DNA of 64,000 nucleotides. Source: a virus. Lineage: Duplodnaviria > Caudoviricetes. The notes under the pieces are model-generated. The model saw only the letters and a program-made list of their open reading frames with translations. It was not told where the DNA came from and did no database searches. This document shows, piece by piece, positions 29,861-54,603 of the stretch. Both the position numbers and the translations under genes were made by a program. The stretch covers positions 1 through 64,000 of IMG/VR virus record IMGVR_UViG_3300008448_000044. One strand, written 5' to 3'. Position 1 is the first letter of the stretch. Each line of letters opens with the position of its first letter.

Positions 29861-29912
29861 AAGTCTTTTGATTTATAAGACAAAAGTTTCTATATTTGTA
29901 AAAACGAATACT

Positions 29913-30092
29913 ATGTACGTGATTTTAAAATACATTCTTAATGAAAAATCAGGGAAAAAATTACCCGTTATATTACTCAATGGTAGTAGTGAAATTTGGG
30001 AATTTGAAACTCTTGAATCTGCCGAAAATATGAGGGATATTTTCCAAAAAAATTCTGACTCGGGATACAAGTACGAGGTCAAAAAAATATAA
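29913..30092 (+). CDS. hypothetical protein
   Basis: ORF downstream of TATATTTG promoter element. Confidence 0.5.
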   Translation: MYVILKYILNEKSGKKLPVILLNGSSEIWEFETLESAENMRDIFQKNSDSGYKYEVKKI

Positions 30093-30099
30093 TTAACTT

Positions 30100-30173
30100 G
30101 GTTCCGTAGCTCAGCTGGATAGAGCAACTGCCTTCTAAGCAGTAGGTCACAGGTTCGAATCCTGTCGGGACTA
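30100..30173 (+). tRNA. tRNA-Arg(TCT)
   Basis: Cloverleaf; anticodon arm ACTGC-CTTCTAA-GCAGT; GGTTCGAATCC T-loop. Confidence 0.95.
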
Positions 30174-30189
30174 CTTTTTAAAAAATATT

Positions 30190-30441
30190 ATGGGAAGTCA
30201 AGATAATATGTTAGAACAAGAACACAATGAATTTGTTAACAGTGACCTTTTTTGTCAAATGATAAAGGATAAAATTGAACATTCCCATTATCATAAGTAC
30301 GATGGTATTGCACCTGAAGGTTTTTTGTTAATACCTGAAATTACTCTTGAACGTCTTAAAGATTTTGATTTTTGGAAGGAATGGAAAAATAATCCTTCAG
30401 TTCTTATTGACTTTGCAAAAAAAGATTCTTATTTAATATAA
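30190..30441 (+). CDS. hypothetical protein
   Basis: 83-aa ORF. Confidence 0.5.
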   Translation: MGSQDNMLEQEHNEFVNSDLFCQMIKDKIEHSHYHKYDGIAPEGFLLIPEITLERLKDFDFWKEWKNNPSVLIDFAKKDSYLI

Positions 30442-30498
30442 CTTTTTTTTGTGAGATACAGATTTTTTTATATCTTTGTAATCTAAATCAATAACATT

Positions 30499-31164
30499 AT
30501 GAAAAAGTTAATCAACGTCGCAATTGTTCTCGGTCTTATAGTATACGCAGGCGAATACCTGAAAAAAAACAATACTGACCTTTACGAAGTTTTTGATGTA
30601 GAAAAGCCTGTGGCTATCTATCTACCTGAAACTCCTGTAACTGTTGAGGAAGATACTCATTCTCATGACACTTCTGAATCTCATGTTGAAGAAGATTACT
30701 CTACTAACCCTAGTGTAGGTCAAACAATCTACATCAGAGCTTTGGGTGATGTTGACAATAACGACCTACAGTCGGCTGCTGACATCGTAAGAGATTTCTA
30801 CGGATACAATGTAAAATTCTTACCTAAAGTTGAGGTTAATTCTTATATGTTAACTTCTAATGGTGACTTAAATTCTGTTAACACTTGTGCTTCTTTGTCT
30901 GATGATGATAAAACAATCTATATCACTGACAGAAAACTATATACTCCTACTGGTGATTTACTTCGAGGTGTTGCGTCAGGTAACGATAGAACCGTTATTG
31001 TTAGAGGTGAATCAAGTTTCTTGAGAGAAACTGTTATCCACGAACTTGGTCACACACTTGGTTTGGGTCACTGTGACGACCTGTCTTGTATCATGGCAAT
31101 CAACAATGACGCATATGATAGTGGTGATTTCTGTAATAGTTGTAAACGTAAAATTGGTTTTTAA
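30499..31164 (+). CDS. archaemetzincin-like (M54) zinc metalloprotease with N-terminal anchor
   Basis: HELGHTLGLGHC...CIM...FCNSC. Confidence 0.85.
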   Translation: MKKLINVAIVLGLIVYAGEYLKKNNTDLYEVFDVEKPVAIYLPETPVTVEEDTHSHDTSESHVEEDYSTNPSVGQTIYIRALGDVDNNDLQSAADIVRDFYGYNVKFLPKVEVNSYMLTSNGDLNSVNTCASLSDDDKTIYITDRKLYTPTGDLLRGVASGNDRTVIVRGESSFLRETVIHELGHTLGLGHCDDLSCIMAINNDAYDSGDFCNSCKRKIGF

Positions 31165-31167
31165 TAT

Positions 31168-31446
31168 ATGAAAACATTTAAAGAATTAAAATTTAAAACT
31201 CACCCTATGGGTCTTGGGGTACAGGCAGTTGAGACATTTGATAACCAATATGGGGTTTCTGTGGTCAGAACCCCATATTCATACGGGGGTCAAAAAGGAA
31301 GATACGAATTGGCGGTACTTGATTCTTCAGGAGCAATTACCTATGATACACCAATCACTAATGATGTGTTGGGTTACCTTACCGAAGATGAGGTTTCTCA
31401 CTATATGATTGAAGTTCAAAAATTATTAACTTATACATTATTTTAA
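31168..31446 (+). CDS. conserved phage hypothetical protein
   Basis: FDNQYGVSVV..SYGG..YELAV..DVLGYLT. Confidence 0.7.
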   Translation: MKTFKELKFKTHPMGLGVQAVETFDNQYGVSVVRTPYSYGGQKGRYELAVLDSSGAITYDTPITNDVLGYLTEDEVSHYMIEVQKLLTYTLF

Positions 31447-31450
31447 AACT

Positions 31451-31708
31451 ATGCCAGAATTTGAAAGTTATGTTGACGTGGATGTTGATGAATTCTTATC
31501 CGCATGTTCACCAAGAGAAATTGAAAATTTGATTGAATACCTTATTGAGGACGGACATCTTGATTCAAAAGGACTACCAAAGAAAAATGAACCAAAGAGT
31601 TTAATGGAAGAAGAGTGGGTCGAAATTACCGATAATCTAAGGGAAAAACGACTTAACATCTCTAACGAAGACGAAGAAACAATTAGAAAAATTTCAAAAA
31701 AATATTAA
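31451..31708 (+). CDS. hypothetical protein
   Basis: 85-aa ORF in operon. Confidence 0.6.
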   Translation: MPEFESYVDVDVDEFLSACSPREIENLIEYLIEDGHLDSKGLPKKNEPKSLMEEEWVEITDNLREKRLNISNEDEETIRKISKKY

Positions 31709-31712
31709 TAAC

Positions 31713-31919
31713 ATGAATAGTATATTTAAAGACCTAATGGAAGAAAATTTAATTTCTGAACCTGAAATTGTGGATTTGATTCAGGTTACACACAAGTTAA
31801 CAAAACTCAATATAATGAGTCAAGAAGATTTGGATAATCTTTGTTTAAAACTAGGAGTAACGCAAATAGGTGAAAATGTATTCCAAATAGATGAAAATAG
31901 TGAGTATACGTTTAACTAA
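31713..31919 (+). CDS. hypothetical protein
   Basis: 68-aa ORF in operon. Confidence 0.5.
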   Translation: MNSIFKDLMEENLISEPEIVDLIQVTHKLTKLNIMSQEDLDNLCLKLGVTQIGENVFQIDENSEYTFN

Positions 31920-31927
31920 CTCCTAAC

Positions 31928-32002
31928 GGTCCTATAGCTCAGTTGGTTAGTAGCACCTGACTCATAATCAGGGGGTCACAGGTTCGAGCCCTGTTGGGAC
32001 CA
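31928..32002 (+). tRNA. tRNA with CAT anticodon, probably Ile2 (lysidine type)
   Basis: CCTGA-CTCATAA-TCAGG arm; body resembles bacterial tRNA-Ile2. Confidence 0.85.
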
Positions 32003-32023
32003 CAAAAAAAATTAGTAAAAAGC

Positions 32024-32053
32024 TTGTCAATCAAGAAACTTTTACTAAGTTTG
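32024..32053 (+). promoter_or_regulatory. Bacteroidota sigmaA-type promoter of tRNA array 1
   Basis: TTG...TAAGTTTG (-33/-7 consensus TTTG / TAnnTTTG). Confidence 0.65.
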
Positions 32054-32088
32054 TAATAGTTATTAGAAAACAAATTAAAATAGAAACA

Positions 32089-32193
32089 ATGAGAACAATT
32101 AATAAACATATGGTCATTATTAGCAAGTCGCAGTTTAGAAATTGCTGGTATCCGCGTGTTCAGATTAATGGTTCGGATTTGTGTATAGGTTAA
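32089..32193 (+). CDS. putative attenuator leader peptide 1 (MRTINKHMVIISKSQFRNCWYPRVQINGSDLCIG)
   Basis: 34-codon ORF between promoter and terminator; codons match tRNAs of downstream array; contains strand complementary to the terminator. Confidence 0.8.
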   Translation: MRTINKHMVIISKSQFRNCWYPRVQINGSDLCIG

Positions 32194-32218
32194 AATTGAG
32201 TTAAACGTAACAAGATAT

Positions 32219-32256
32219 AACCCCGAACCAACACAAGGTTCGGGGTTTTTTGTTTT
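32219..32256 (+). terminator. attenuator terminator 1
   Basis: AACCCCGAACC-aacacaa-GGTTCGGGGTT plus U-tract; 5' arm can alternatively pair with TGGTTCGG at 32169-32176. Confidence 0.9.
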
Positions 32257-32258
32257 AA

Positions 32259-32282
32259 GTTCTTTGACATATTGGTTTGAAA
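32259..32282 (+). promoter_or_regulatory. boxA-like antitermination element
   Basis: GTTCTTTGACATATTGGTTTGAAA, identical at 36699-36722; resembles rrn boxA. Confidence 0.7.
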
Positions 32283-32290
32283 GTTTAAAT

Positions 32291-32374
32291 TGTCCTGTAG
32301 TGTAATTGGCAACACACCTGATTTTGGCTCAGGAATCCGCAAGGTGTATCCAGGTTCGAGTCCTGGCGGGACAA
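32291..32374 (+). tRNA. tRNA-Gln(TTG) with long variable arm
   Basis: CCTGA-TTTTGGC-TCAGG arm; variable region AATCCGCAAGGTGTAT. Confidence 0.85.
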
Positions 32375-32376
32375 CA

Positions 32377-32452
32377 GATGGCGTGGCTTAGAGGAAAAGA
32401 GTTTTCTCTCATAAGGAAGACCAAGTGGGTTCGAAACCCATACACGTCACCG
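32377..32452 (+). tRNA. degenerate tRNA-Met(CAT)-like
   Basis: CTCATAA loop, GTGGG-TTCGAAA-CCCAT T-arm; irregular acceptor junction. Confidence 0.55.
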
Positions 32453-32458
32453 AATAAT

Positions 32459-32530
32459 AGCCCTTTAGCTTAAAGGAGAAGCACTTGTTTTACATACAAG
32501 ATAGTGTAGGTTCGAGTCCTACAGGGGCTA
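32459..32530 (+). tRNA. tRNA-Val(TAC)
   Basis: CTTGT-TTTACAT-ACAAG arm. Confidence 0.9.
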
Positions 32531-32539
32531 CAATAAATT

Positions 32540-32612
32540 GGAGAGGTTGCCAAGTTGGTCAAGGCACTGGACTGAAAATCCAGCTATGTGGGTTCGATTC
32601 CCACCCTCTCCA
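32540..32612 (+). tRNA. tRNA-Phe(GAA)
   Basis: CTGGA-CTGAAAA-TCCAG arm. Confidence 0.9.
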
Positions 32613-32689
32613 CGGAGTCCTGAATTAACAGGAGACCCCCACTCCCATATGGCAGTCAGTCCGTTAACCTGATGAAGTGGGGTTTTTAT

Positions 32690-32767
32690 GGAGTATATAG
32701 TGTCAGTGGTTGAGCACGTTAGTTTGTGGTACTAATAGGGTGAGTTCGAATCTCACTATACTCCCCA
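32690..32767 (+). tRNA. tRNA-His(GTG)
   Basis: TTAGT-TTGTGGT-ACTAA arm; G-1:C73; encoded CCA. Confidence 0.92.
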
Positions 32768-32830
32768 CCCCCCGAGTTTTGGAGCTGGTACCTCCTTTTA
32801 CCCGAATTGAAATGAAAAACTACCAAATTT

Positions 32831-32917
32831 GGAAGTGGTCTGAATGGACGAAGAGCTTGTCTTGAAAACAAGTAGTACCTTAACTGTGTATTGGGGGTTC
32901 GATTCCCTCCGCTTCCG
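32831..32917 (+). tRNA. tRNA-Ser(TGA)
   Basis: CTTGT-CTTGAAA-ACAAG arm; long variable arm; G73. Confidence 0.9.
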
Positions 32918-32923
32918 CAACTT

Positions 32924-32996
32924 AGTCTCTTGGTGTAACGGATAAGCACCTATCGCTACGGACGATAAAGTTTGGGTTCGAATCCCAAGGAGACTA
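32924..32996 (+). tRNA. tRNA-Arg(ACG)
   Basis: TATCG-CTACGGA-CGATA arm. Confidence 0.9.
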
Positions 32997-33037
32997 CAAC
33001 ATCCGATGTGTGTTCCCGAGCTAGGTCGGGATAAAAT

Positions 33038-33125
33038 GGAAGATTACTCAAATTGGTAAAGAGGCTTGTTTGCTAAACAAGTAGGTCTGAAATATGATAC
33101 GTAGGTTCGAACCCTACATCTTCCG
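33038..33125 (+). tRNA. tRNA-Ser(GCT)
   Basis: CTTGT-TTGCTAA-ACAAG arm; long variable arm. Confidence 0.9.
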
Positions 33126-33132
33126 CAACAAT

Positions 33133-33205
33133 GGTTCTGTAGTTCAATTGGAAGAACAAGGCTCTTCTAAGGCTTCGGTTGGGGGTTCGAATCCCTCCAG
33201 AATCA
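33133..33205 (+). tRNA. tRNA-Arg(TCT), second copy
   Basis: AGGCT-CTTCTAA-GGCTT arm. Confidence 0.85.
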
Positions 33206-33218
33206 CTAAAATAAATAA

Positions 33219-33290
33219 CGGGGTGTAGTCTCGGGGAGAGACGCGTGTTTTGGGAACACGAGGCGGCTGGTTCGACTCCAGTCACCCCGA
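33219..33290 (+). tRNA. tRNA-Pro(TGG)
   Basis: CGTGT-TTTGGGA-ACACG arm; C1:G72, A73. Confidence 0.9.
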
Positions 33291-33305
33291 CTAATAATTA
33301 AAATT

Positions 33306-33515
33306 ATGTTTGGATTTAGAAAAACATTAACTAACGAGGAATGTGAAATAGTCATGTTAAAAGGAAAGTTAGAAGGACTGACCAATTATCATGAGGGTTT
33401 AACTAAAGTTAGTGAAAGACCTGATAATAGAAGTGATTTATCAGAAGAAATTAAAAGAGTTAAAAATGAAATCATTATGATTGAAGGAACTCTAAAAAAA
33501 ATGAAAAAAAATTAG
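33306..33515 (+). CDS. small coiled-coil hypothetical protein within tRNA array
   Basis: 69-aa ORF filling inter-tRNA gap. Confidence 0.55.
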   Translation: MFGFRKTLTNEECEIVMLKGKLEGLTNYHEGLTKVSERPDNRSDLSEEIKRVKNEIIMIEGTLKKMKKN

Positions 33516-33572
33516 TAAAACAGAACGATATATACCAAAAAATGGTTACTTTTGTTCTATAAAACTAAATAT

Positions 33573-33645
33573 TGTGATGTGTCCGAGTGGTTTAGGAACT
33601 ATCCTGATACGATAGTCTACGTGGGTTCGAGTCCCACCGTCACAA
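33573..33645 (+). tRNA. tRNA-Ile(GAT)
   Basis: CTATC-CTGATAC-GATAG arm. Confidence 0.85.
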
Positions 33646-33647
33646 CG

Positions 33648-33791
33648 AAAACTGTAGTAAAATAAGAGTTACTTCGTCTGTTAAACGAGTGGTCGTAGGT
33701 TCGAATCCTACCTTTGAACACAGTCTTAAGTGACACGTTCAGAGTAGCTCAGGGGTAGAGTACTAAATCTCTCTTATGATTTTCTCAGTTT
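33648..33791 (+). ncRNA. circularly permuted tRNA-Asn(GTT)-like RNA / YrlA-like Y RNA
   Basis: Order is anticodon arm, T arm, acceptor 3' strand, linker, acceptor 5' strand, D arm, all enclosed by an outer stem (AAAACTG/CAGTTTT, ATAAGAG/CTCTTAT). Confidence 0.75.
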
Positions 33792-33796
33792 TAATT

Positions 33797-33872
33797 GTCT
33801 TCGTAGCTCAGCTGGTTTTAGAGCATTCCACTTTTAATGGAAGGGTCACAGATTCGAATTCTGTCGGGGACA
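33797..33872 (+). tRNA. tRNA-Lys(TTT)
   Basis: TTCCA-CTTTTAA-TGGAA arm. Confidence 0.9.
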
Positions 33873-33887
33873 CAAATTAACAACACA

Positions 33888-34289
33888 ATGCACAGTACTG
33901 CAAACAAAGAAAAATGTCTTAATGGTAAATCCTTAGAAGACGACTTTCAAAACCTAACAGGGTTAAAGAAAATGTTAAAAAAAGAAAAACCATTCTTTAT
34001 TAATTCTTTAGGTAAAAAACAAATTATTGATTTTGATTTTAAAACTGAAATTAATGGTGTTGATGTCTTTATTGACTTAACAACAACATTCAGAAGTGAC
34101 AGATTAAAACAAAAGGCATATAATGCGATTATGTATAAAACTAAACTTAACCCAAATTGTAAGTTTTATATGGGAGTTGGAAAATTAATTGAAAACGGGA
34201 AAAAGAAAAATCCGATTTTAATCGAAGGGATTGATGGTGTAATCTTGGTAGATGATTTAATCGGAATGATAAAACGGACAGATGCCTGA
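33888..34289 (+). CDS. putative PD-(D/E)xK nuclease inserted in tRNA array
   Basis: GKSLE...IIDFD...FIDLTTTFRSDRLKQ resembles restriction-endonuclease-type active-site motifs; stop lies inside tRNA-Cys. Confidence 0.55.
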   Translation: MHSTANKEKCLNGKSLEDDFQNLTGLKKMLKKEKPFFINSLGKKQIIDFDFKTEINGVDVFIDLTTTFRSDRLKQKAYNAIMYKTKLNPNCKFYMGVGKLIENGKKKNPILIEGIDGVILVDDLIGMIKRTDA

Positions 34290-34349
34290 GTGGTTTAAAG
34301 GGGTGGACTGCAAATCCATTATTCGGGGGTTCAAATCCCTCTCTGTCCT
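34276..34349 (+). tRNA. tRNA-Cys(GCA)
   Basis: GTGGA-CTGCAAA-TCCAT arm; U73. Confidence 0.92.
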
Positions 34350-34350
34350 C

Positions 34351-34506
34351 AATGAAGTAGTCAAAAGCGTAGGTAATCAAGCGTGGAGAGACGTGTCGCA
34401 AGGGTACACACTAAGGATAAGTAGAAATACTCAACTCTCTAATGGTGTGTGAAGTAGAAACATAAGAACCTACAGGATTCCTGATAAAGATTATCACTAT
34501 TTCATT
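34351..34506 (+). ncRNA. unassigned structured RNA
   Basis: Terminal helix AATGAAGTAG/CTATTTCATT, inner GTAGGT/ACCTAC; no ORF; sits between tRNAs. Confidence 0.5.
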
Positions 34507-34510
34507 AATT

Positions 34511-34583
34511 GCATCTTTGGTGTAACGGATTAGCATAAGTGACTCCAAATCTCTTGGTCAGGGTTCGAATCCCTGGGGATGCG
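34511..34583 (+). tRNA. tRNA-Trp(CCA)
   Basis: CTCCAAA loop; G73. Confidence 0.88.
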
Positions 34584-34589
34584 CAAAAT

Positions 34590-34662
34590 GACTCAGTAGC
34601 TCAATTGGTGGAGCCCCATACTGTTAATATGGTCGTTACAGGTTCAAGTCCTGTCTGAGTCG
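34590..34662 (+). tRNA. tRNA-Asn(GTT)
   Basis: CCATA-CTGTTAA-TATGG arm; G73. Confidence 0.9.
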
Positions 34663-34742
34663 CAAATATTTTTCATTGTTAATGTTGTGAGAATGGAAAA
34701 AAGTTGTATCTTTGTCAAACAAACAACTTAAAACTATACACC

Positions 34743-35189
34743 ATGACATCTACAATAATCAACGTAAACACAGGAACATTAGCAGGAGAGGTATTTTACG
34801 GAAACTTCAACACTACCGTAAAAGGTAAAAGAATTTCAGTTTCAGTTTCAAACCACCTTAAAGACGCAGATAAAGAATACGAATTCCGTATCGCAAATAA
34901 ATGTCAAGCAGGATTCATCAATATCCACGACACTAAAGGAACTGCGGCGGGTGTTATCCGTGGATACCAAAAAAACTCATTGGTTAATATCCAAGCAAAA
35001 AATGAGTATGGTCAATGGATGAACGTTTACACTGTCAAAGGAGGTAAATGGTATTCAATCGACAAAGGGTTTTTGGATGTGTTGACTGTTGGGACAATGA
35101 GAGAGTCTTTCCCTGACATGTGTGACATGGAACTTTGGGGTAGAATGGGAGCAAAAACTTGGGCGGACAAGGCGTTTGTACAGAATTAA
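34743..35189 (+). CDS. hypothetical protein
   Basis: 148 aa; own TATCTTTG promoter at ~34708. Confidence 0.7.
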   Translation: MTSTIINVNTGTLAGEVFYGNFNTTVKGKRISVSVSNHLKDADKEYEFRIANKCQAGFINIHDTKGTAAGVIRGYQKNSLVNIQAKNEYGQWMNVYTVKGGKWYSIDKGFLDVLTVGTMRESFPDMCDMELWGRMGAKTWADKAFVQN

Positions 35190-35210
35190 AAATTAATAAA
35201 ACAATAGAAT

Positions 35211-35510
35211 ATGTCTTTTAAGAGCGAATTATTGTACAAGTCATCCAATATTGGAAAATATGAACTACACCTTGATGGTTCAACAGGATGGGGAATTTTA
35301 TTTCCAAACGGGTATATTGAAGTTGAGGAAGGTCCGCATGATTGTGTTGGATTTATGAGAGGAGAAGTAAATGGGATTTCTGTATATTCAGAAGGTTACA
35401 ACGTCCCAAGAATTCCTGGGTCATATTGGATGGGTGATATGTCTGATGGGGAGTTGTTAAAATTTTTTGATGAGGTTGTTTTAAAATATAGTCAGGTGTC
35501 GAAATGGTAG
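35211..35510 (+). CDS. hypothetical protein
   Basis: 99 aa; stop inside the downstream tRNA-like element. Confidence 0.55.
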   Translation: MSFKSELLYKSSNIGKYELHLDGSTGWGILFPNGYIEVEEGPHDCVGFMRGEVNGISVYSEGYNVPRIPGSYWMGDMSDGELLKFFDEVVLKYSQVSKW

Positions 35511-35592
35511 ACGAGCCTCAACACCCTGGGGTTGAGACATTAAATGAGGGATAACAATGGGTCTCTTACAGGTTCGAGTCCTGTCCTGACTA
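35490..35592 (+). ncRNA. tRNA-like RNA (AGTCAGG/CCTGACT acceptor) with aberrant anticodon arm
   Basis: Intact acceptor, D-loop (AAATGGTAGAC) and T-arm; expanded anticodon region. Confidence 0.7.
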
Positions 35593-35595
35593 CAT

Positions 35596-35730
35596 AGGTT
35601 GATTGGGGAATGGTGATACCTATGACACGAGAGTGTGTATCGGTCGGCATCATCGGAGTTTGCAGGTACACACCGAAGTAATGCCAATCGTAAAAGAGGA
35701 TGTCCACTGAACCATCTTCCTCTTTCCTAA
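35596..35730 (+). ncRNA. unassigned structured RNA
   Basis: Outer helix GGGAATGGT/ACCATCTTCC; inner GATAC/GTATC and GGCAT/ATGCC helices. Confidence 0.5.
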
Positions 35731-35733
35731 ATT

Positions 35734-35814
35734 GGGAGTGTTAAGCAACGGTTGCTTAGCTGACTGTAAATCAGTGGTCTTACGACATTGGGGGTTCGAA
35801 TCCCTCCACTCCCA
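35734..35814 (+). tRNA. tRNA-Tyr(GTA)
   Basis: GCTGA-CTGTAAA-TCAGT arm; variable arm. Confidence 0.9.
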
Positions 35815-35829
35815 CAAAAATTTTTCAAA

Positions 35830-36444
35830 TCATTTGTCTTTCTTTTTGTAGATTTTTGGAGGTAAAGGTGGGTCTAAAAGAAATTTGTCATTTATCCAAT
35901 TTCTAAGTTCATTTTCGACAAAAAATTCAGGAACTTCGTCATCATCTGATTTTGATGATGCCAAATCTGAAATATAGTCGGCGAACTTAAGTTTGTATTT
36001 GTCATCCATCATTGTCATCAAACCATCAGTCATAAAAAAAACTCTGGATAATGGGTCTTCAATATTTAATTCACCTTCTGCTAAATTAAATGATTTCATA
36101 ATTACTTTACCCCACCAAGTTTTATAGTTTTGAGTTTCAACAATAGTTGGTCGGATTATTTTATTGAATGCTCTTAAAGACGACCCAATAAACCCCGCAA
36201 TTGCAATTTGTGGTAAAAACCAAGGTAATAATCTAATTAACGCTTTAAATCCTCCCTCACCAACACCTTTCCATAAACGCTCATTTTTTGCAGAATCAAC
36301 TAACGCCTTTAGTTGACCGAATGTTATTTTACCCTGAGCACTACAGAATTGTTTGGATTTACAAATATTGTTTACCGCGCTTTTAGAGGGTTCAATCTCC
36401 TCCATTAACATTAATATTTGTGATTCTGTTAATATCAACCTCAT
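35830..36444 (-). CDS. hypothetical protein (probable virion-internal)
   Basis: N-terminus MRLILTESQILMLMEE; separates the two tRNA arrays. Confidence 0.7.
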   Translation of the reverse strand: MRLILTESQILMLMEEIEPSKSAVNNICKSKQFCSAQGKITFGQLKALVDSAKNERLWKGVGEGGFKALIRLLPWFLPQIAIAGFIGSSLRAFNKIIRPTIVETQNYKTWWGKVIMKSFNLAEGELNIEDPLSRVFFMTDGLMTMMDDKYKLKFADYISDLASSKSDDDEVPEFFVENELRNWINDKFLLDPPLPPKIYKKKDK

Positions 36445-36527
36445 ATTAATAAATATGATATTTTACCTAAAACTTGACACTTTTAAAAAGTTGTATATAT
36501 TTAATTAAAAAACAAACAACGCAAAAA

Positions 36528-36599
36528 ATGAAAAATTTAAATATCATACTTTTAGGCGGGACTGAAGCGGATACACGTTTTAGAACGGAGATGGTATGA
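36528..36599 (+). CDS. putative attenuator leader peptide 2 (MKNLNIILLGGTEADTRFRTEMV)
   Basis: 23-codon ORF upstream of terminator; codons match tRNAs of array 2; GGAGATGG complementary to the terminator 5' arm. Confidence 0.78.
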   Translation: MKNLNIILLGGTEADTRFRTEMV

Positions 36600-36622
36600 T
36601 ATGACGTGAAATAAACTGACTG

Positions 36623-36658
36623 AAACCCATCTCCAAAAAAGATGGGTTTTTTCTTTTT
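36623..36658 (+). terminator. attenuator terminator 2
   Basis: AAACCCATCT-ccaaaaa-AGATGGGTTT plus U-tract. Confidence 0.9.
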
Positions 36659-36698
36659 ATACGTTTTGTGAATTGAAATTTTTTTGTAACTTTGTAAT

Positions 36699-36722
36699 GT
36701 TCTTTGACATATTGGTTTGAAA
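36699..36722 (+). promoter_or_regulatory. boxA-like element (preceded by TAACTTTG promoter at 36687-36694)
   Basis: Exact 24-nt repeat of 32259-32282. Confidence 0.7.
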
Positions 36723-36727
36723 AGTAA

Positions 36728-36799
36728 GGTCTATTGGTGTAGTGGCTAACATACATCCCTGTCACGGATGTGCCGCGAGTTCGATTCTCGCATAGACCG
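36728..36799 (+). tRNA. tRNA-Asp(GTC)
   Basis: CATCC-CTGTCAC-GGATG arm; G73. Confidence 0.92.
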
Positions 36800-36805
36800 C
36801 AATAT

Positions 36806-36882
36806 CGCGGGTTATGGAAGTGGTCTATCCGCCAGGTCTCATAAGCCAGGAATCGGGGGTTCGAATCCCTCACCCGCTACCA
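36806..36882 (+). tRNA. tRNA-Met(CAT), initiator-like
   Basis: C1:U72 mismatch, CTCATAA loop, encoded CCA. Confidence 0.8.
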
Positions 36883-36885
36883 AAT

Positions 36886-36964
36886 GGGGGTACATGTACC
36901 AAGGCTTTGGCGATGTCGATTTGCAATCAACGTGAGGTGGGTTCGATTCCCACTATCTCCACCA
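36886..36964 (+). tRNA. tRNA-Ala(TGC)
   Basis: TTTGCAA loop; G3:U70; encoded CCA; atypical D arm. Confidence 0.85.
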
Positions 36965-37199
36965 AATAAACGAGTAAAACAAAGAATGATGAGAGAAGTT
37001 TTGTCAGGAACTCTCAAATCAGGTAAAAGAAATTTTGTAAAGGTAAATCAAGATAATAATCTGATTGAGAGTTTGAAAAAAACGCTTAAAAGAACGAAGT
37101 ACAAGTTCAGAGTGAGGAGCGGGTCTCACAAAAGTAATTAAATAAAGAGGAACAACTTGTGTAGAAGCCTCAGGGAACTGCAGTCCCACTACACTCTAA

Positions 37200-37272
37200 G
37201 CGGGTGTCGTATAACGGCATATTATATTAGACTTCCACTCTAAGGATGAGGGTTCGACTCCCTCCACCCGCT
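37200..37272 (+). tRNA. tRNA-Gly(TCC)
   Basis: TTAGA-CTTCCAC-TCTAA arm; U73. Confidence 0.92.
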
Positions 37273-37293
37273 CTAATTTAAATTTAAAAGAAA

Positions 37294-37563
37294 ATGAAAA
37301 AAGTGTTTTTTATCTTGGGAATTGTTTCCCTATTTGGAATGTCGTCTTGTACTGAGAATTCGCGAGTAAAGAATTGGGGAGGGGAAGGTACATTAACCTT
37401 ACCTAAAGGTCAAAAATTGGTAAATGTAACTTGGAAAGAAAGTCAGATTTGGTATCTTACAAGGTCTATGAAAGAAACTGACTCTGCCGAAGTTTATATA
37501 TTTCATGAAGAGTCTTCTTACGGTATGATGGAAGGAACTTACAAAATCGTGGAGGTGAAATAA
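37294..37563 (+). CDS. small lipoprotein
   Basis: Signal peptide with lipobox-like MSSC. Confidence 0.75.
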   Translation: MKKVFFILGIVSLFGMSSCTENSRVKNWGGEGTLTLPKGQKLVNVTWKESQIWYLTRSMKETDSAEVYIFHEESSYGMMEGTYKIVEVK

Positions 37564-37778
37564 GAATCCTTATGAGATTAGGTTTTAAAACAAAAAGATT
37601 TTTGATTAAAAACAGAGAAAATATCGTATACCTATACATGGGAATAATTTTTTTAATTTTTTTACTTACGGTTTTTTTGTAGTTTAAAAAAAAGTTGTAT
37701 CTTTGTAATGTTGTTAAGGGGGACGGAAGTATTAAAGTGATGGTGTTCCGTCCCCCGAATAAGAGAAAAAGTTCTTTG

Positions 37779-38070
37779 AAAGGTTGTGATTTATTACACT
37801 AAAGCGAGGGGGAAAACTTTAGGTAGTATGTGTTGAACTAGATTGCTCCGACTAGCGTGGGTATACTCACGAAGCATTTAACAATGGAGTAATGATGCTT
37901 ACACATATAAATCCCAACCATTTTTAAAATATTGATAGTGGTCACTCTTACAATGAAAGTCGACAGAGTAGTTGTAAGGTAACATAGTGTCAGCACCCTC
38001 GGCCAGTGCACTGATAAAACTCAGAAGATGCCGTTAAGATTGGAGCGAGATGGGTACTCCAACACTATCA
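37779..38070 (+). ncRNA. two unassigned structured RNAs
   Basis: Helices GGTTG.GATTT/AAATC.CAACC (37782-37919) and TGATAGTG/CACTATCA (37933-38070); follow promoter, hairpin and boxA. Confidence 0.5.
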
Positions 38071-38138
38071 TCTTACTGAATGAACAACGCGACCGCAGGA
38101 GTTGTACCTTTATGGTTTTGTAATGTGGTTTTTTAAAT

Positions 38139-38212
38139 GTCGCGTTAGACGAGCGGTTTAAGTCGTCACCCTTTCAAGGTGAAAATCACGGGTTCGAATC
38201 CCGTACGCGATA
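38139..38212 (+). tRNA. tRNA-Glu(TTC)
   Basis: TCACC-CTTTCAA-GGTGA arm. Confidence 0.92.
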
Positions 38213-38269
38213 CAAACTTCAATAGGAGTACCTGTTCAAGGGATGTTGTAATTCCCCTATTGATTAAAA

Positions 38270-38356
38270 ACCACTGTTGAAAGTTACTATTGGATAGGAC
38301 GAACAGGAGGGTGACCGATACGTAAGGTCTTTGGGGTTCAAATCCCACCAGTGGTC
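38270..38356 (+). ncRNA. degenerate tRNA-like element
   Basis: ACCACTG/CAGTGGT acceptor-like helix and GGG-TTCAAAT-CCC T-arm; no clear anticodon arm. Confidence 0.45.
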
Positions 38357-38724
38357 AATGAGTAAGAGATACTCACCGAGTTTTTAAGTTCTCTCAAGAC
38401 TTAACGAATTTGGTACTACCACGTTACGGGGTACTCGTTGGGAATAAGGCTGGAAAATCCTCCTCGCCCCCAAGTAAGGATTGACGTTTAAGTGGTAAGA
38501 CACGTTGGGTTTTGAAATAGGAAAACTGTGAATATCCACTCACCTGTAATCTCAAGGTGGGGTTTTGTGAGAGTAATCGGTCGAGCCACATTTAGCCGTT
38601 AATCACACAAATGGTTTGGGAACAGAGGTGGCCGTGACTTTTCCAAATCTAGCCAACCAAGCTATACTACGATACGGGCTCATACCTGTGGGTTAGGGGT
38701 GACGTTCAGGAGAGACTGAAACGG

Positions 38725-38802
38725 AGTCAGGAGCGTAATGAGGTATGGCACCGAGTCCTGTGAAAAGGTTGCTCATTGTGGGTTCGAATCCCTCCCTGAC
38801 TA
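38725..38802 (+). ncRNA. tRNA-like RNA, AGTCAGG family
   Basis: AGTCAGG/CCTGACT-A acceptor, GGTTCGAATCC T-arm, non-canonical middle. Confidence 0.6.
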
Positions 38803-39017
38803 CGAGTCGCTTTTTCGTGGTCTGTTGTTAGACGGTGGTTTTAGGCGTGATGTAAAACCGATAACTTTAAGTAGTTTGTATAATATAACAACTCCGTTTA
38901 ATAGTTTCGGGTATAGAAAAAGTAGGTCTTTTTTACATGGAAAGAGTTTTTGACGTTCAAAAAAACTAATAAAATTAGTAGGGAATAAAAGGGAGTTACT
39001 CGCTCCCTTCCCGAAAT

Positions 39018-39120
39018 AGTCAGGTGGCGGAATTGGTAGACGCTTAAAGAAAGCCGAAAGGTGGGTGTAAGTCCCTTAATGGTGTAAACTTCGTACAGGT
39101 TCGATTCCTGTCCTCGGTTA
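39018..39120 (+). ncRNA. tRNA-like RNA, AGTCAGG family
   Basis: Leu-like D arm GGCGGAATTGGTAGACGC, T-arm, no canonical anticodon loop. Confidence 0.6.
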
Positions 39121-39266
39121 CAAAAAATTAAAAGTTATGAATTATACAATAGAAAAGAAATGCCATGCTTGGATAGGAATATGGTGGCAAGTTAAAGAAG
39201 ATAAAGATATAGTCTTTAAGAGTAAACGAAAAAAAGATTGTGTGCTCTACGTGAACAATAAAATAT

Positions 39267-39365
39267 AGTTAGGTGGCGGAGAGGAAACGCTAACTATGAA
39301 TAGTCTGAGGAGTGGAACATAGTCCTATACTCCAATGACCGCAGGTTCGAATCCTGTCCTGACTA
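39267..39365 (+). ncRNA. tRNA-like RNA, AGTCAGG family
   Basis: AGTTAGG/CCTGACT-A acceptor, T-arm GCAGG-TTCGAAT-CCTGT, aberrant middle. Confidence 0.6.
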
Positions 39366-39379
39366 CAAAAAGTAAAAAT

Positions 39380-39571
39380 ATGGAATTGATATTGTATGGG
39401 ATTATCGGAAGTTTGATTGGTAGTTTAATTGTGTTAATTACAATAAATCTATTTAAGTCAAAACCATCAATTGACTATCAGGAGTTGATTAAACAATCTG
39501 AAGAACGATTAGAGAAGTCAAAAAAATATGGTGAAGAGTTAGATAGAATGTTGGAGGAAATGAAAAAATAA
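39380..39571 (+). CDS. small membrane-anchored protein
   Basis: N-terminal TM helix plus coiled coil. Confidence 0.55.
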   Translation: MELILYGIIGSLIGSLIVLITINLFKSKPSIDYQELIKQSEERLEKSKKYGEELDRMLEEMKK

Positions 39572-39733
39572 ATAAAATGGAAAATAAAGAATGGAATCCA
39601 AATGATTGGCAAGGTAAACGCAAAGACCAAGTTGACTACGCAAGCGCGATAACTTTTATTTCAATTGTTTTTGGAATTGTAGTTGGAATTGTGGTTTGTT
39701 TTTTATATCTTTGTAATGTTATTTGATTGAAAC

Positions 39734-39820
39734 GCTTGGGTGGTGGAATGGTAGACACGAGGGACTTAAAATCCCTTGGCCAATGCGGCCGTGAGGGTTC
39801 GAGTCCCTCCCCGAGTACCA
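39734..39820 (+). tRNA. tRNA-Leu(TAA)
   Basis: AGGGA-CTTAAAA-TCCCT arm; variable arm; CCA. Confidence 0.95.
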
Positions 39821-39824
39821 AAAT

Positions 39825-39897
39825 TGGTACGTAGCTCAATGGTGAGAGCACGACGCTTATATCGTCACGGTTATGGGTTCGAATCCCATCGTACCAA
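39825..39897 (+). tRNA. tRNA-Ile(TAT)
   Basis: GACG-CTTATAT-CGTC arm; A73. Confidence 0.85.
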
Positions 39898-39903
39898 CAA
39901 CTT

Positions 39904-39984
39904 GCCCGAGTGGTGGAATGGTAGACACGTAAGTCTTAGGAACTTATGTCGAATGACGTGTCGGTTCGAGTCCGACCTTGGGTA
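39904..39984 (+). tRNA. tRNA-Leu(TAG)
   Basis: TAAGT-CTTAGGA-ACTTA arm; variable arm. Confidence 0.93.
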
Positions 39985-39989
39985 CGAAA

Positions 39990-40545
39990 CCGTGGTAATG
40001 TTAGTAGGATGAGGCTGCAATCGGATTCCTTTAAACAACGCGTGAGGGGCAGCTTTCACGATGTGGCTGATAACCCACGGCGACTAAAGACCCCACGATT
40101 AACAGAGATATCCGACTGTTATGGTGTGTGAACCTGACTTGAAGGCTTCAAGGCTATGGGGGAGGCTACACAGGTTAGGTAAGGATTCCTCATTATGGAT
40201 TGAGAGGGTAAGGGGCTTTAATTAGTCGTGTTGTAATCCACAAGTTGTAGAAATACTGAACAATTCTACAATATACACTCTGGCTTCCGAGTGAGACCCG
40301 CCAAGTAACTATGGGGGTAGGGTGAAGATGTTCTGAGGGCAGCACTGAACGCTATACACGAAAGACTATGACTCACTTGATTAGGTTAGTAGGTATGGAC
40401 GGAGTGTGAAAGTAGAAACCCACCGTGGATGGTTACTATGGGCTAACGAATCTTAGTCATATCGGTGAGGGATATAACGTACATCAAATATAAGAAAAAC
40501 AAAAAGGTTCACCTGGACTGATGCAGGGACGATTCAGAACCTTTT
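39990..40545 (+). ncRNA. ~550-nt GC-rich structured non-coding region between tRNAs
   Basis: No credible ORF; helices CCGTGG/CCACGG, CGACTAA/TTAGTCG, TTGTAGAA/TTCTACAA, AAAAGGTTC/GAACCTTTT. Confidence 0.55.
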
Positions 40546-40551
40546 ATTTAT

Positions 40552-40629
40552 GGTGTCGGTAGCTCAGTAGGTAGAGCAAAGGATTGAAACTCCTTGTGCC
40601 GAGCGGTTCGATTCCCTCCCACACCACCA
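40552..40629 (+). tRNA. tRNA-Phe(GAA), second copy
   Basis: AAGGA-TTGAAAC-TCCTT arm; CCA; imperfect acceptor/T stems. Confidence 0.8.
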
Positions 40630-40632
40630 AAT

Positions 40633-40705
40633 GCCCCTGTAGCTCAATTGGTAGAGCTCTTGATTTGTAATCAAGTGGTTGCAGGTTCGATTCCTGTCGG
40701 AGGCT
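40633..40705 (+). tRNA. tRNA-Thr(TGT)
   Basis: CTTGA-TTTGTAA-TCAAG arm. Confidence 0.9.
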
Positions 40706-40728
40706 CTAACAAACCAATATGTTTGATT

Positions 40729-40754
40729 CCCCATCTTTATAGGTGGGGTTTTTT
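40729..40754 (+). terminator. terminator ending tRNA array 2
   Basis: CCCCATCT-ttat-AGGTGGGG plus U-tract. Confidence 0.8.
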
Positions 40755-41229
40755 ATTTTCTTTGATTTAAAAGAAATTCTTTATAAACTAGAATGTGTAA
40801 ATGATACACAGTTAATACAAGTATTGCAAAAATCTCAAGCCAAAGTAAACCAAATAATAAACCGATAATCAATGAAATACAATAAATTATTGTATAGATT
40901 CTAAATCGTTTAGTTGTGTATAGGGAGTACAGACAGGATATAAAAAAAAGAACTGCGAACAGATTATGAACTGCAGGATATAAAGTAACCGAAAATGCGG
41001 TAAGTAACATCAGAAAAAGGGACGGGATTTTCCAATCCTTCAAATCAAAAAAGAAATAACTTGTTGTTGCGTTTATAAAAATGAATAATGGTTGTAATGG
41101 GGTTTCCCAATATTGGGATAAAGAAGTTAATTCACCACAAAAATAAATTAGAATAAATGGTTGAAGTAAAGAAATGAGAATTACAAATAGTCTTACGAAA
41201 AAATCTATATTCCCAAACAACCACCTCAT
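40753..41229 (-). CDS. multi-pass membrane protein
   Basis: About five hydrophobic helices. Confidence 0.65.
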   Translation of the reverse strand: MRWLFGNIDFFVRLFVILISLLQPFILIYFCGELTSLSQYWETPLQPLFIFINATTSYFFFDLKDWKIPSLFLMLLTAFSVTLYPAVHNLFAVLFFISCLYSLYTTKRFRIYTIIYCISLIIGLLFGLLWLEIFAILVLTVYHLHILVYKEFLLNQRK

Positions 41230-50636: not shown

Positions 50637-50934
50637 AAAAAGTTGAAGAAAAATTTGGAAAATTAAAAAGTTCTTCTTAACTTTGTAAAACAAATCGGAA
50701 ATGTCCGATGAGTTCTTTAAAAAAATTGGTTATAGAAACAGTCTAGGTCCGTAGGGCTACTGTTGTATGTGAGGAAAGTGACTACGGGAATCCTTCGCAT
50801 TTAAAGTGTAAATGAGACATGTTACCGCAACAGTTATAATAACCGAAAAAAAAGTTTGAGAAAAATTTGGAAATTAAAAAAATTGTTCTTAACTTTGTAA
50901 AACAAATCGGAAACGTCCGATAGAGTTCTTTGAA
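50635..50934 (+). repeat. duplicated ~88-bp promoter/boxB/boxA module (50635-50722, 50845-50934)
   Basis: Both copies TTTG...TAACTTTGTAAAACAA-ATCGGAAAYGTCCGAT-..GTTCTTT. Confidence 0.85.
50727..50846 (+). ncRNA. small structured RNA between the duplicated promoters
   Basis: Outer helix TTGGTTAT/ATAACCGA; two hairpins with complementary loop segments CCGTAG/CTACGG. Confidence 0.5.
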
Positions 50935-50935
50935 A

Positions 50936-51808: not shown

Positions 51809-51880
51809 AGTGGGATAGAGCAGTGGAAGCTCGCAAGGCTCATAACCTTGAGGTCGAAGGTTCGAATCCTTCTCCCGCAA
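51809..51880 (+). tRNA. tRNA-Met(CAT), initiator-like
   Basis: 1:72 mismatch, A11:U24, CAAGG-CTCATAA-CCTTG arm. Confidence 0.88.
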
Positions 51881-54522: not shown

Positions 54523-54603
54523 ATATGTTAAAGAACTTTTGTTTTACAAATATACGAATAAAAAGATTAATACCAAATCTTTCGTGTATTTATTTGTATA
54601 AAT

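Follow-up and report, generated by a model that had tools for sequence, protein, structure and literature searches.

Leader-peptide attenuators control amino acid biosynthesis operons, with trpL, hisL, leuL, thrL, ilvL, and pheL as examples. The phage locus analyzed in this study resembles the trpL-type attenuators in having a short leader open reading frame (ORF) that is predicted to be translated, an intrinsic terminator, and an antiterminator that a ribosome reaching the last codons would mask; furthermore, a 1:2 hairpin encloses the regulatory codons, and a stall at these codons is predicted here to result in read-through. Unlike the trpL-type attenuators, the phage leaders would control tRNAs, not enzymes. 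Upstream ORFs (uORFs) that act as sensors of translation stress have also been described, namely, the topAI uORF, the whiB7 uORF, and the mycobacterial polycysteine leaderless ORFs (PMC12121999, PMC10274678, 10.1101/834739). No earlier description of a codon-matched leader preceding a phage tRNA array was found in the literature.

The DNA studied, referred to here as the window, comprises positions 1 to 64,000 of the Caudoviricetes record IMGVR_UViG_3300008448_000044. We consider it likely that its second leader, leader 2, acts as a transcription attenuator of the ribosome-mediated (leader-peptide) kind, gating the passage of transcription from its own promoter into tRNA array 2, and that its input is the efficiency with which the infected cell decodes codons read by the downstream phage tRNAs; this reading was derived from sequence comparison and folding models. 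The first-pass annotation had already interpreted the locus as an attenuator of array 2, an interpretation now supported by homologues, by anatomy shared across leader families, and by compensatory changes in a hairpin.

All of the leader 2 elements lie on the plus strand. Leader ORF 2 (36528..36599) has an ATG start and 23 codons followed by TGA and reads MKNLNIILLGGTEADTRFRTEMV up to its stop; it is unbroken in all 14 distinct homologous sequences, and, like 74 of the 79 long ORFs of the contig, it is not preceded by a Shine-Dalgarno motif. The predicted promoter (36474..36503) consists of TTG(ACA) at 36474, a 19-nt spacer, and TATATTTA at 36496-36503, and it scored 11/12 in the consensus scan. 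The same TTG-N19-TAnnTTT[GA] layout precedes leader 1 at 32024-32053, and 26 of 35 families have it 5' of their leader ATG. Segment 1 (36541..36550; AUAUCAUACU) is the 5' strand of an anti-antiterminator hairpin found both in the minimum free energy fold and in the consensus structure of the 14 sequences. Segment 2 (36587..36602) contains the antiterminator strand GGAGAUGG at 36587-36594 and overlaps both the 3' strand of hairpin 1:2 (36593-36602) and the stop codon. Segments 3 and 4 form the intrinsic terminator (36622..36658), which starts 22 nt past the stop codon and has an 11-pair stem (36622-36650), a 7-nt loop, and a T-run extending to about 36658; its 5' arm is identical in 14/14 homologous sequences. 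The ORF, the terminator, and the exact complementarity of GGAGATGG (36587-36594) to CCATCTCC (36627-36634) were all found where the first-pass annotation had placed them.

Computation showed that the alternative pairings of leader 2 are mutually exclusive. The RNA fold had a z score of -6.35, with none of 200 shuffles as good, and the best partner of the terminator arm within the whole leader ORF was GGAGATGG (-13.9 kcal/mol), a value matched by 2/500 shuffles. In ribosome-mask folds, for which the transcript was taken up to the terminator loop, the terminator 5' arm was paired upstream with a P of about 0.66 when the A-site lay anywhere up to 36573-36576, a boundary that falls at the end of the matched codon block; with the ribosome on the last codons of the ORF, upstream pairing dropped to a P of 0.11 to 0.28. 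Most leader 2 variants responded alike. The anti-antiterminator hairpin, in which 36541-36550 pairs with 36593-36602, has three pairs changed on both sides in the 14-sequence consensus (e.g., UA to CG and CG to AU). Seven of 10 variants have a strong antiterminator, and a leader 2-like sequence (L070) has an ORF with GAAGAGGG and a terminator arm with CCCTCTTC; in the other 3/10 variants the antiterminator is weakened, these lineages having a single uncompensated mismatch in the 8-bp antiterminator (GGCGATGG, GGAGAAGG, and GGAAATGG) and pairing no better than shuffles (p = 0.15-0.41). Because the terminator was always favored at equilibrium in the fold computation, the attenuator model rests on kinetics.

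We infer translation of the leader ORF, ribosome stalling, and regulated read-through as follows. The transcript would begin about 20 nt 5' of the ATG, and the 23-codon ORF would be translated during transcription. A ribosome at the last codons or the stop codon would cover GGAGAUGG, the terminator hairpin would form, and transcription would halt at the T-run. When the matching charged tRNA is scarce, the ribosome would instead stall at a codon of the sensing window (Leu TTA/CTT, Ile ATA, Gly, Thr, Glu, Ala, or Asp) and hold segment 1, leaving GGAGAUGG to pair with CCAUCUCC of the terminator 5' arm, so that RNA polymerase would continue. A boxA-like signal would be encountered next, probably recruiting host Nus factors and thereby conferring termination resistance over the roughly 4-kb untranslated array. 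Newly made phage tRNAs would ease the stall, amounting to negative feedback on tRNA supply, and the presence of one or two codons per tRNA would make the ORF a sensor of any one missing species. The physiological trigger could be a codon-usage gap, starvation, or a tRNA-cleaving host defense.

Array 2, also on the plus strand, was resolved by ARAGORN into nine tRNAs (Asp, Met, Gly, Glu, Leu-TAA, Ile-TAT, Leu-TAG, Phe, and Thr). A further gene, missed by that program, is Ala-TGC-like (36886-36964), as judged by its near identity to genes that ARAGORN names tRNA-Ala in relatives. It lies between the Asp-GTC (36728-36800) and Met-CAT (36806-36882) genes on one side and Gly-TCC (37200-37273) on the other; tRNA-Glu (TTC) (38139..38213) and the genes for Leu-TAA, Ile-TAT, Leu-TAG, Phe-GAA, and Thr-TGT (39734..40706) follow, and the array closes with a terminator at 40729..40748. 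Codons for 10/10 of these species occur in the whole leader ORF, as they do in 992 of 400,000 random ORFs drawn with phage codon usage. The earlier claim that all 10 tRNAs are represented thus holds for the entire ORF; however, TTT (Phe) and the internal ATG (Met) sit in the ORF tail, outside the structurally defined sensing window (codons 2 to 16; 36531-36575), and in the ribosome-mask model only 8/10 species would be sensed, because a ribosome at TTT or ATG would cover the antiterminator. These eight coincide exactly with the set of species exclusive to array 2. The 15 codons of the sensing window cover all eight (P = 1.1e-3), as do 12 of the 64,671 stop-free windows of 15 codons in the rest of the contig, and a 10-codon run within it has a P of 2.3e-5. 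Taken alone, the coverage statistic of leader 2 is modest. With one codon per tRNA, leader 2 would be a weak sensor beside the codon runs of classical leaders.

The sister module, leader 1 (32024..32282, plus strand), precedes array 1 (32291-35815) and comprises a promoter, an ORF (32089-32193) containing GGTTCGG at 32170-32176, a terminator (32219-32247), and a boxA-like 23-mer (32260-32282). Its codon match is stronger than that of leader 2: all 15 tRNA species are covered in 23 codons (P = 8e-7), which none of 46,631 windows in the rest of the contig achieves. Among its relatives, GGTTCGG with terminator arms CCGAACC/GGTTCGG is replaced by AGTTCAG with arms CTGAACT/AGTTCAG, so that antiterminator and terminator change in step. 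A contig from an RNA library, possibly representing library DNA, covers 32112-32296, spanning the leader 1 ORF, the terminator, the boxA-like motif, and the start of tRNA-Gln; such a terminator-bridging contig was found for leader 1 only. Array-1 tRNAs read codons 2, 3, 5, and 6 of leader 2 (AAA, AAT, AAT, and ATC) and its CGT, AGA, and GTA, which are tail codons. The table of own-array versus other-array codons for the two leaders (rows 21, 1 and 4, 11) gave a Fisher p of 1.6e-5. The proposed division of the 20 amino acids between the modules holds approximately, the departures being a Thr codon in leader 1 (position 3), Phe tRNAs in both arrays, the split of Ile by codon, and a Met tRNA (31928) that precedes leader 1 and is outside array 1.

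The same arrangement recurs in 35 leader families, obtained by sorting phage contigs that have a short ORF, a terminator, a boxA-like motif, and a tRNA array; 32 of these families are unrelated to leaders 1 and 2. Leaders covered 93.0% of the species of their own arrays, versus 67.5% when leaders and arrays were re-paired (92.4% versus 67.0% for the 32 unrelated families), and neither difference was reached in 20,000 permutations. Conversely, 47.6% of leader codons were read by the own array, versus 30.7% after re-pairing (0/20,000), a result that also holds among the 32 unrelated families. The tails of the ORFs are variable in both length and sequence, but each one carries a copy of the 3' arm of its own terminator: although arm sequences differ among families, the tail pairs with its own 5' arm at a mean of -12.18 kcal/mol, compared with -7.91 for the arms of other families (0/20,000). 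Matched codons were concentrated in the sensing window (322/524; 61%) relative to the tail (103/311; 33%; p = 2e-15), and codons 2 to 4 contained 30/94. Where two modules share a contig, the codon partition was correct in 4/4 pairs. A chance or compositional origin of the codon match, with the terminator merely insulating the array from upstream transcription, would agree with the common amino acids of the leader 2 block and with its modest probability, which 12 other windows of the contig equal. This reading is very unlikely given the leader 1 probability, the permutation tests, and the within-contig controls, which removed genome composition as a cause; the first-pass annotation had likewise judged chance to be improbable.

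Alternatively, the attenuator could report general translation capacity (stress that targets ribosomes, (p)ppGpp, or shut-off of host translation by the phage), or its nascent peptide could act as an arrest peptide. In the logic of the structure, a stall anywhere in the sensing window would give read-through, and uORF sensors of general translation stress are reported (PMC12121999, PMC10274678). Such a sensor, however, would have no need to mirror single tRNA species, including those that differ in anticodon while serving the same amino acid (TTA and CTT; ATA versus ATC; AGC and TCG; AGA and CGT), or to vary with the array across families and within one contig, and no peptide sequence or arrest motif common to the 35 families was found; what they share is a composition fitted to their own array. 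We therefore regard a signal other than tRNA supply for the matched codons as quite improbable.

Homologous leaders lacking the codon match had been named as evidence against the attenuator; the match is instead kept in homologues and in the 32 unrelated families. Phe codons in leader 2 are confined to sequences whose array 2 includes a Phe tRNA, namely, the window and L001/L006, and are absent from L029 and L007/L008/L030; L066 has AGA in its leader and Arg-TCT in its array. Counting against the attenuator reading, in some variants the sensed codon has been lost but the tRNA kept (Glu in L018, Ala in L003, and one Gly in L026). The peptide core LLGGTEAD is conserved, with synonymous changes (CTT/CTA, GGC/GGT, GGG/GGA, GAA/GAG, and ACA/ACG).

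Leader 2 cannot be the sole control of array 2, because the array has predicted internal promoters. TAnnTTTG motifs, previously proposed as such, are located at 36687, 37698, and 39706, each with a TTG 17 to 21 nt upstream. The first belongs to a predicted promoter between the terminator and the array (36666..36694, plus strand; TTG-N18-TAACTTTG), which is retained in most leader 2 relatives and could bypass the attenuator. The second forms part of an internal module (37677..37781, plus strand) made up of a promoter (37677-37705), a hairpin, and a boxA-like motif (37771-37781), and the third (39683..39713, plus strand) is directly 5' of tRNA-Leu; the distal Leu, Ile, and Thr tRNAs could therefore arise without read-through. 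These promoters would also suit a different view, in which leader 2 is a free-standing small gene whose conserved micropeptide, or sRNA of about 150 nt, acts in trans, while the array is expressed from promoters past the terminator and the codon match reflects phage-tRNA need or another tRNA-related cause. Promoter, ORF, and terminator do make a whole unit with a predicted promoter after it, the LLGGTEAD core is conserved through synonymous changes, and the antiterminator is imperfect in 3/10 variants. We nevertheless consider a free-standing gene unlikely, since the 35 families have array-matched composition in place of a common peptide, and since tails that always copy their own terminator 3' arm, and matched codons enriched only upstream of that copy, are unexpected for a trans-acting peptide. 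Moreover, the promoter motif scan found no recognizable promoter between the leader 1 terminator and its boxA-like motif.

The boxA-like element of leader 2 (36699..36722, plus strand) contains GTTCTTTGACA within a 23-mer identical to that at 32260-32282. This motif fits 10/11 positions of GYTCTTTAANA, the gammaproteobacterial boxA consensus (PMC5725501), which may not be that of the host. The same motif is found at 37771, downstream of promoters ahead of GOLLD (50712 and 50925), and on the minus strand at 54536, where a promoter precedes it and the tmRNA gene follows. For the conserved 23-mer that follows each terminator, a transcribed boxA-like antitermination signal is a more probable identity than a promoter.

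Compared with known systems, the element has several partial counterparts. As with the topAI, whiB7, and polycysteine uORFs, slowed translation of a short ORF would turn on downstream genes; those uORFs are triggered by antibiotics or by a single amino acid, their targets are protein genes, and none is described, in the portions of the reports available, as mirroring a downstream tRNA repertoire. T-box riboswitches likewise couple the state of the tRNA pool to a terminator/antiterminator choice before translation-related genes. They recognize a single uncharged tRNA by direct binding, independently of translation, whereas the phage element is an ORF, predicted to be translated, that would read many species; no Rfam T-box match was obtained at 29800-41000, either at the gathering score or at E values up to 1. 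The boxA-like motif recalls NusB/NusE-dependent antitermination at rRNA operons and lambda nut sites, in being located within transcribed leader sequences ahead of long untranslated RNAs (tRNA arrays, tmRNA, and GOLLD), often after a hairpin. It would accompany the attenuator on its downstream side and would not itself be the sensor, and Nus binding is putative. From the trpL-type attenuators, the phage leaders differ in being phage-borne, in having apparently Bacteroidota-style promoters without Shine-Dalgarno motifs, and in having a boxA-like element downstream. This design is general, recurring in dozens of unrelated phages. Where trpL-type leaders have a run of codons for one amino acid, the phage ORF represents each of 8 to 17 tRNA species by one or two codons, which would make it a many-input sensor.

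Re-examination of the sequence in front of tRNA array 2 confirmed every coordinate in the first-pass annotation. The leader 2 ORF at 36528-36599, whose product is MKNLNIILLGGTEADTRFRTEMV, is followed by a terminator with a stem at 36622-36650 and then a T-run, and the antiterminator strand GGAGATGG (36587-36594), near the end of the ORF, is complementary to CCATCTCC (36627-36634) in the terminator 5′ arm. A promoter-like site at 36474-36501 scores 11/12, and the leader 2 RNA fold is far more stable than those of shuffled sequences (z = -6.35). ARAGORN called Asp, Met, Gly, Glu, Leu-TAA, Ile-TAT, Leu-TAG, Phe, and Thr tRNAs in the array; the Ala(TGC) gene at 36886-36964 was not called but is near-identical to genes in relatives that ARAGORN does call tRNA-Ala. 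The same program also placed a "tmRNA" at 36587-36964; this call is spurious and takes in the end of leader 2, tRNA-Asp, tRNA-Met, and the Ala tRNA-like gene. As had been claimed, the ORF contains codons for all of the array 2 tRNAs (10 of 10 species), a coverage that was reached by 992 of 400,000 random ORFs with phage codon usage.

The codons that matter for an attenuator are those at which a stalled ribosome leaves the antiterminator free, and these were defined by folding the transcript as far as the terminator loop (cut before the 3′ arm) with the 28-nt footprint of a ribosome masked at each codon. For every A-site position up to 36573-36576, the terminator 5′ arm paired with GGAGAUGG (P ~0.66); once the ribosome reached the last seven codons or the stop codon, this pairing was lost (P = 0.11-0.28). 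Ribosome-masked equilibrium folding of the full leader 2 kept the terminator in every case. The sensing window defined in this way comprises codons 2-16, and its end coincides exactly with that of the codon block singled out in the first-pass annotation. It matches all eight species exclusive to array 2 (for 15 random codons, P = 1.1e-3; for the 10-codon run, P = 2.3e-5). In the rest of the contig, 12 of 64,671 windows free of stop codons also attained 8/8. The codons for Phe and Met that had been included in the match are present in the ORF, but both lie in its tail, outside the sensing window. The proposal that the two modules divide the amino acids between them is supported by the split of leader 1 and leader 2 codons by array ([[21,1],[4,11]]; Fisher p = 1.6e-5), but leader 2 codons 2, 3, 5, and 6 are read by array 1 tRNAs. 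The caveat about internal promoters was justified: the TAnnTTTG motifs at 36687, 37698, and 39706 were all found, with one promoter-like site (36666-36694) in the gap between the terminator and the boxA-like motif and two more farther downstream in array 2. Because of these sites, leader 2 is predicted to be able only to add to a basal level of array 2 expression. The RNA-library contigs from four runs leave 36098-36690, including leader 2, uncovered and are therefore uninformative either way.

Leader 1, the sister module before array 1 (ORF 32089-32193; terminator 32219-32247), follows the same pattern: its sensing window of 23 codons matches 15/15 array 1 species, the two Ser and two Arg species among them (P = 8e-7), and a coverage of 15 was reached by none of 46,631 windows elsewhere. 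No promoter-like site was found between the leader 1 terminator and the boxA-like motif; transcripts of array 1 that bear the motif must therefore have crossed that terminator. One RNA-library contig, for which library DNA is a possible source, covers 32112-32296, from the leader 1 ORF to the first bases of tRNA-Gln. Separately, the conserved SQFxNC core of leader 1 (32131-32146; columns 65-80 of alignment A2) encodes a small hairpin, GCAGUU...AAUUGC, in which two pairs are changed on both sides in relatives. It could be a polymerase pause hairpin, and a hairpin there would account for the conserved order of these residues.

Relatives of the two leaders were retrieved from viral and metagenome contigs by means of a 23-mer common to the 3′ flanks of both terminators; the distinct sequences obtained numbered 9 for leader 1 and 14 for leader 2, and the ORF was intact in every one. 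The early part of the leader 1 peptide differs in residue order from lineage to lineage but keeps its composition. The codon match, on whose presence in homologous leaders the first-pass annotation had made its reading depend, was kept, with counterexamples. The leader 1 sensing window covers the whole array in the contig under study and in the related loci L001, L007/L008/L030, and L009, every species except Met in L003 and L004, and 12 of 13 species in L002, where the uncovered gene has an aberrant anticodon loop. At the Arg-TCT position in L002 (6407-6480) and L027 (6410-6483), ARAGORN assigned a two-base "anticodon," which indicates an unusual anticodon loop. A Phe codon occurs in leader 2 only alongside a Phe tRNA in array 2: both are present in the 64-kb window and L001/L006, and both are absent from L029 and L007/L008/L030. 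Likewise, in L066 an AGA codon in the leader accompanies an Arg-TCT tRNA in the array. The counterexamples, in which the sensing-window codon is lost but the tRNA is kept, are Glu in L018 and Ala in L003.

Per-sequence duplexes showed that the copy of the terminator arm within the leader 1 ORF covaries with the terminator (GGTTCGG/CCGAACC to AGTTCAG/CTGAACT, two pairs changed on both sides). The leader 2 terminator arm is invariant among relatives. Seven of 10 variants have its 8-bp antiterminator partner intact (-13.9 kcal/mol; shuffle p = 0.002-0.016), and the L007-type, L024, and L003/L004 sequences carry one uncompensated mismatch there, with a pairing no better than in shuffles. These mismatches argue against a strict need for the 8-bp helix. 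The leader 2 anti-antiterminator hairpin (36541-36550 with 36593-36602) is retained, with pairs changed on both sides.

The same architecture recurs well beyond these relatives. When viral contigs were scanned for GTTCTTTGA at a distance of 5-35 nt after a terminator end, at least 120 stretches were obtained; among the matches listed, 76 had a tRNA within 120 nt downstream. To call leaders without reference to tRNA content, we took the longest ATG ORF whose end lay at most 70 nt upstream of the terminator; this gave at least 108 modules with at least 84 distinct ORFs from viral and metagenome loci (L001-L150) and the contig under study. Among the matches listed, 16 were left out because the array held under 3 tRNAs or the ORF length was not within 18-50 codons, and the other 68 fell into 35 families at 45% identity. 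Examples include a leader with NPQQHPQ before Pro, His, and Gln tRNAs, one with VVLSVAVLLWDDAAEE before Asp, Glu, Val, Leu, Ala, and Trp tRNAs, and one with YYFKKSYKKY before Lys and Tyr tRNAs. For the 35 families from the matches listed, the fraction of array species covered was 0.930 with the arrays' own leaders and 0.675 with re-paired leaders, and the fraction of leader codons read by the array was 0.476 and 0.307, respectively; in neither case were any of 20,000 permutations as extreme. The 32 families from these matches that are unrelated to the 64-kb window gave the same outcome (0.924 versus 0.670 and 0.447 versus 0.287; 0/20,000). A chance match between leader and array is excluded by these permutation tests. 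Genome composition is also ruled out as the cause, since pairs of modules within one contig had the correct codon partition in 4/4 cases (p 0.046 to 6e-5).

Codons read by the leader's own array made up 30/94 at positions 2-4, 322/524 in the sensing window, and 103/311 in the tail (window versus tail, p = 2e-15), and 224 of 252 non-Met species had a codon upstream of the tail. The ORF tail paired more stably with its own terminator arm (-12.18 kcal/mol) than with the arms of other families (-7.91 kcal/mol; 0/20,000, two bad terminator calls included). A trans-acting micropeptide or small RNA fits these data less well, since it would leave unexplained why the ORF tail of each family copies that family's terminator arm and why the matched codons lie where they do. 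A general sensor of translation stress also fits less well; it accounts neither for a match at the level of individual tRNA species nor for the change of that match along with the array. The idea that phages borrowed a host tRNA-operon mechanism was dropped: in cellular genomes, a tRNA follows the same pattern in only 2 of 120 stretches among the matches listed, one of them on a phage-like 5.9-kb contig. Because this linkage is so rare in the listed cellular stretches, the module looks phage-borne.

The first 11 bases of the 23-mer, counting the G that precedes it (GTTCTTTGACA), agree at 10 of 11 positions with the gamma-proteobacterial boxA consensus of PMC5725501 (GYTCTTTAANA). Other boxA-like sites lie before the tmRNA, within array 2 (37771), and ahead of the GOLLD RNA (50712 and 50925), and a hairpin precedes three of them. 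Within 54132-54600 (minus strand), the phage has a tmRNA gene of its own (54132-54522; 105 bits), preceded by TTG-N19-TATATTTG, of the TAnnTTTG type, and by GTTCTTTAACATAT, which directly adjoins the mature 5′ end; this is the motif that stands before the tRNA arrays. Two near-identical promoter-hairpin-boxA-like modules (50655-50730 and 50867-50940) lie upstream of GOLLD; the structured stretch that follows them merges into the GOLLD match (51388-51799), and a tRNA-Met is next at 51809. The Rfam GOLLD model represents only the 3′ half of the RNA, and 50940-51387 may be the 5′ half. The 23-mer is probably not a promoter: the -10 box that it would have as a sigma-70-type element is unconserved and would put the start site inside the tRNA, and an RNA-library contig crosses it. 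We read the boxA-like motif as a putative site of Nus-factor antitermination on long untranslated transcripts. In families in which the terminator and the boxA-like motif are ~50 nt apart (L037, L044, L045, L067, and L141), the final TTG of the T-run lies 19 nt upstream of TAnnTTTG, and the terminator tail may double there as the -33 element of a second promoter.

Several further features were observed within the arrays. Contigs from four RNA libraries of three studies pile up between the tRNA genes of array 2, at 40089-40395 (summed depth, ~280-530) and 38554-39474 (35-127). These intervals match no Rfam family at E values up to 1 and are candidates for abundant noncoding RNAs; the fold z-score of 39990-40545 is just -1.29. 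RNA-library contigs of all four runs contain a joint from 39043/39044 to 39342 that skips ~298 nt, which could be due to a spliced element or, alternatively, to relatives that carry a deletion. In array 1, a weak match to YrlA, a Y RNA-like family (33648-33795; 33.7 bits, under the gathering score), overlaps a weak tRNA-like match at 33648-33716.

The 64-kb window is the first part of a 77-kb contig with 33% G+C and contains 27 tRNA genes by ARAGORN. It also has genes, at 9032-10900 and 56844-58874 (minus strand), for an Hsp70/DnaK-like protein of full length (852 bits) and for a ClpB-like double AAA protein. The closest cultured relatives, judged from one protein, are Maribacter and Prevotella phages, at <42% identity over about one-third of the protein; a distant DNA search of phage records with the leader 2 region and 39990-40545 gave no match. 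Only 5 of 79 long ORFs in the contig have a Shine-Dalgarno-like motif, and many transcription units are preceded by TTG-N17-21-TAnnTTTG sites. Both traits are typical of Bacteroidota, and for this reason the contig appears to be part of a large phage of a Bacteroidota host.

Taken together, the data fit a classical four-segment attenuator in which the regulatory codons are a list of the downstream tRNAs. A stall at any listed codon would free the antiterminator, completed translation would mask it, the boxA-like element would then carry read-through transcription over the array, and the fresh phage tRNAs would feed back on the stall. Translation of the ORF, ribosome stalling, the regulation of read-through, the action of Nus factors, and the natural trigger are inferred. 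With rather more doubt than conviction, we propose that many phages whose hosts appear to be Bacteroidota have an inducible tRNA supply circuit, in which a "codon checklist" ORF before each array probes the decoding of each codon class in real time and any failure turns on exactly the matching phage tRNA genes. On this tentative proposal, the circuit would be an on-demand counter to host tRNA-cleaving defenses and gaps in codon usage, as well as the first case of leader-peptide attenuation of tRNA genes and the first natural many-input attenuator.

Why phages carry tRNA genes, and how these genes are controlled, is an old open question, for which the sequence suggests a testable answer: the phage may gauge decoding capacity codon by codon and tune its own tRNA output. 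If this is true, leader-peptide attenuation reaches beyond amino acid metabolism to tRNA genes, one short ORF is a natural sensor of 8 to 17 different inputs, and phage tRNA arrays are tied to host defenses that cut tRNAs. It would also provide an annotation rule for hundreds of unannotated short phage ORFs, namely, that the leader codons list the tRNAs that follow. Compact modules of differing specificity might serve as reporter parts for tRNA or codon availability in cells.

In the full-text literature, to which subscription journals and supplements would add and in which an earlier report is possible, we found neither leader-peptide control of tRNA genes nor codon-matched leaders before phage tRNA arrays, and a genome-wide attenuator survey (PMC2965389) contains no occurrence of "tRNA gene," "tRNA operon," "Bacteroid," or "phage." The class of mechanism is already known; what appear to be new are its target, its many-input design, and its spread among phages.
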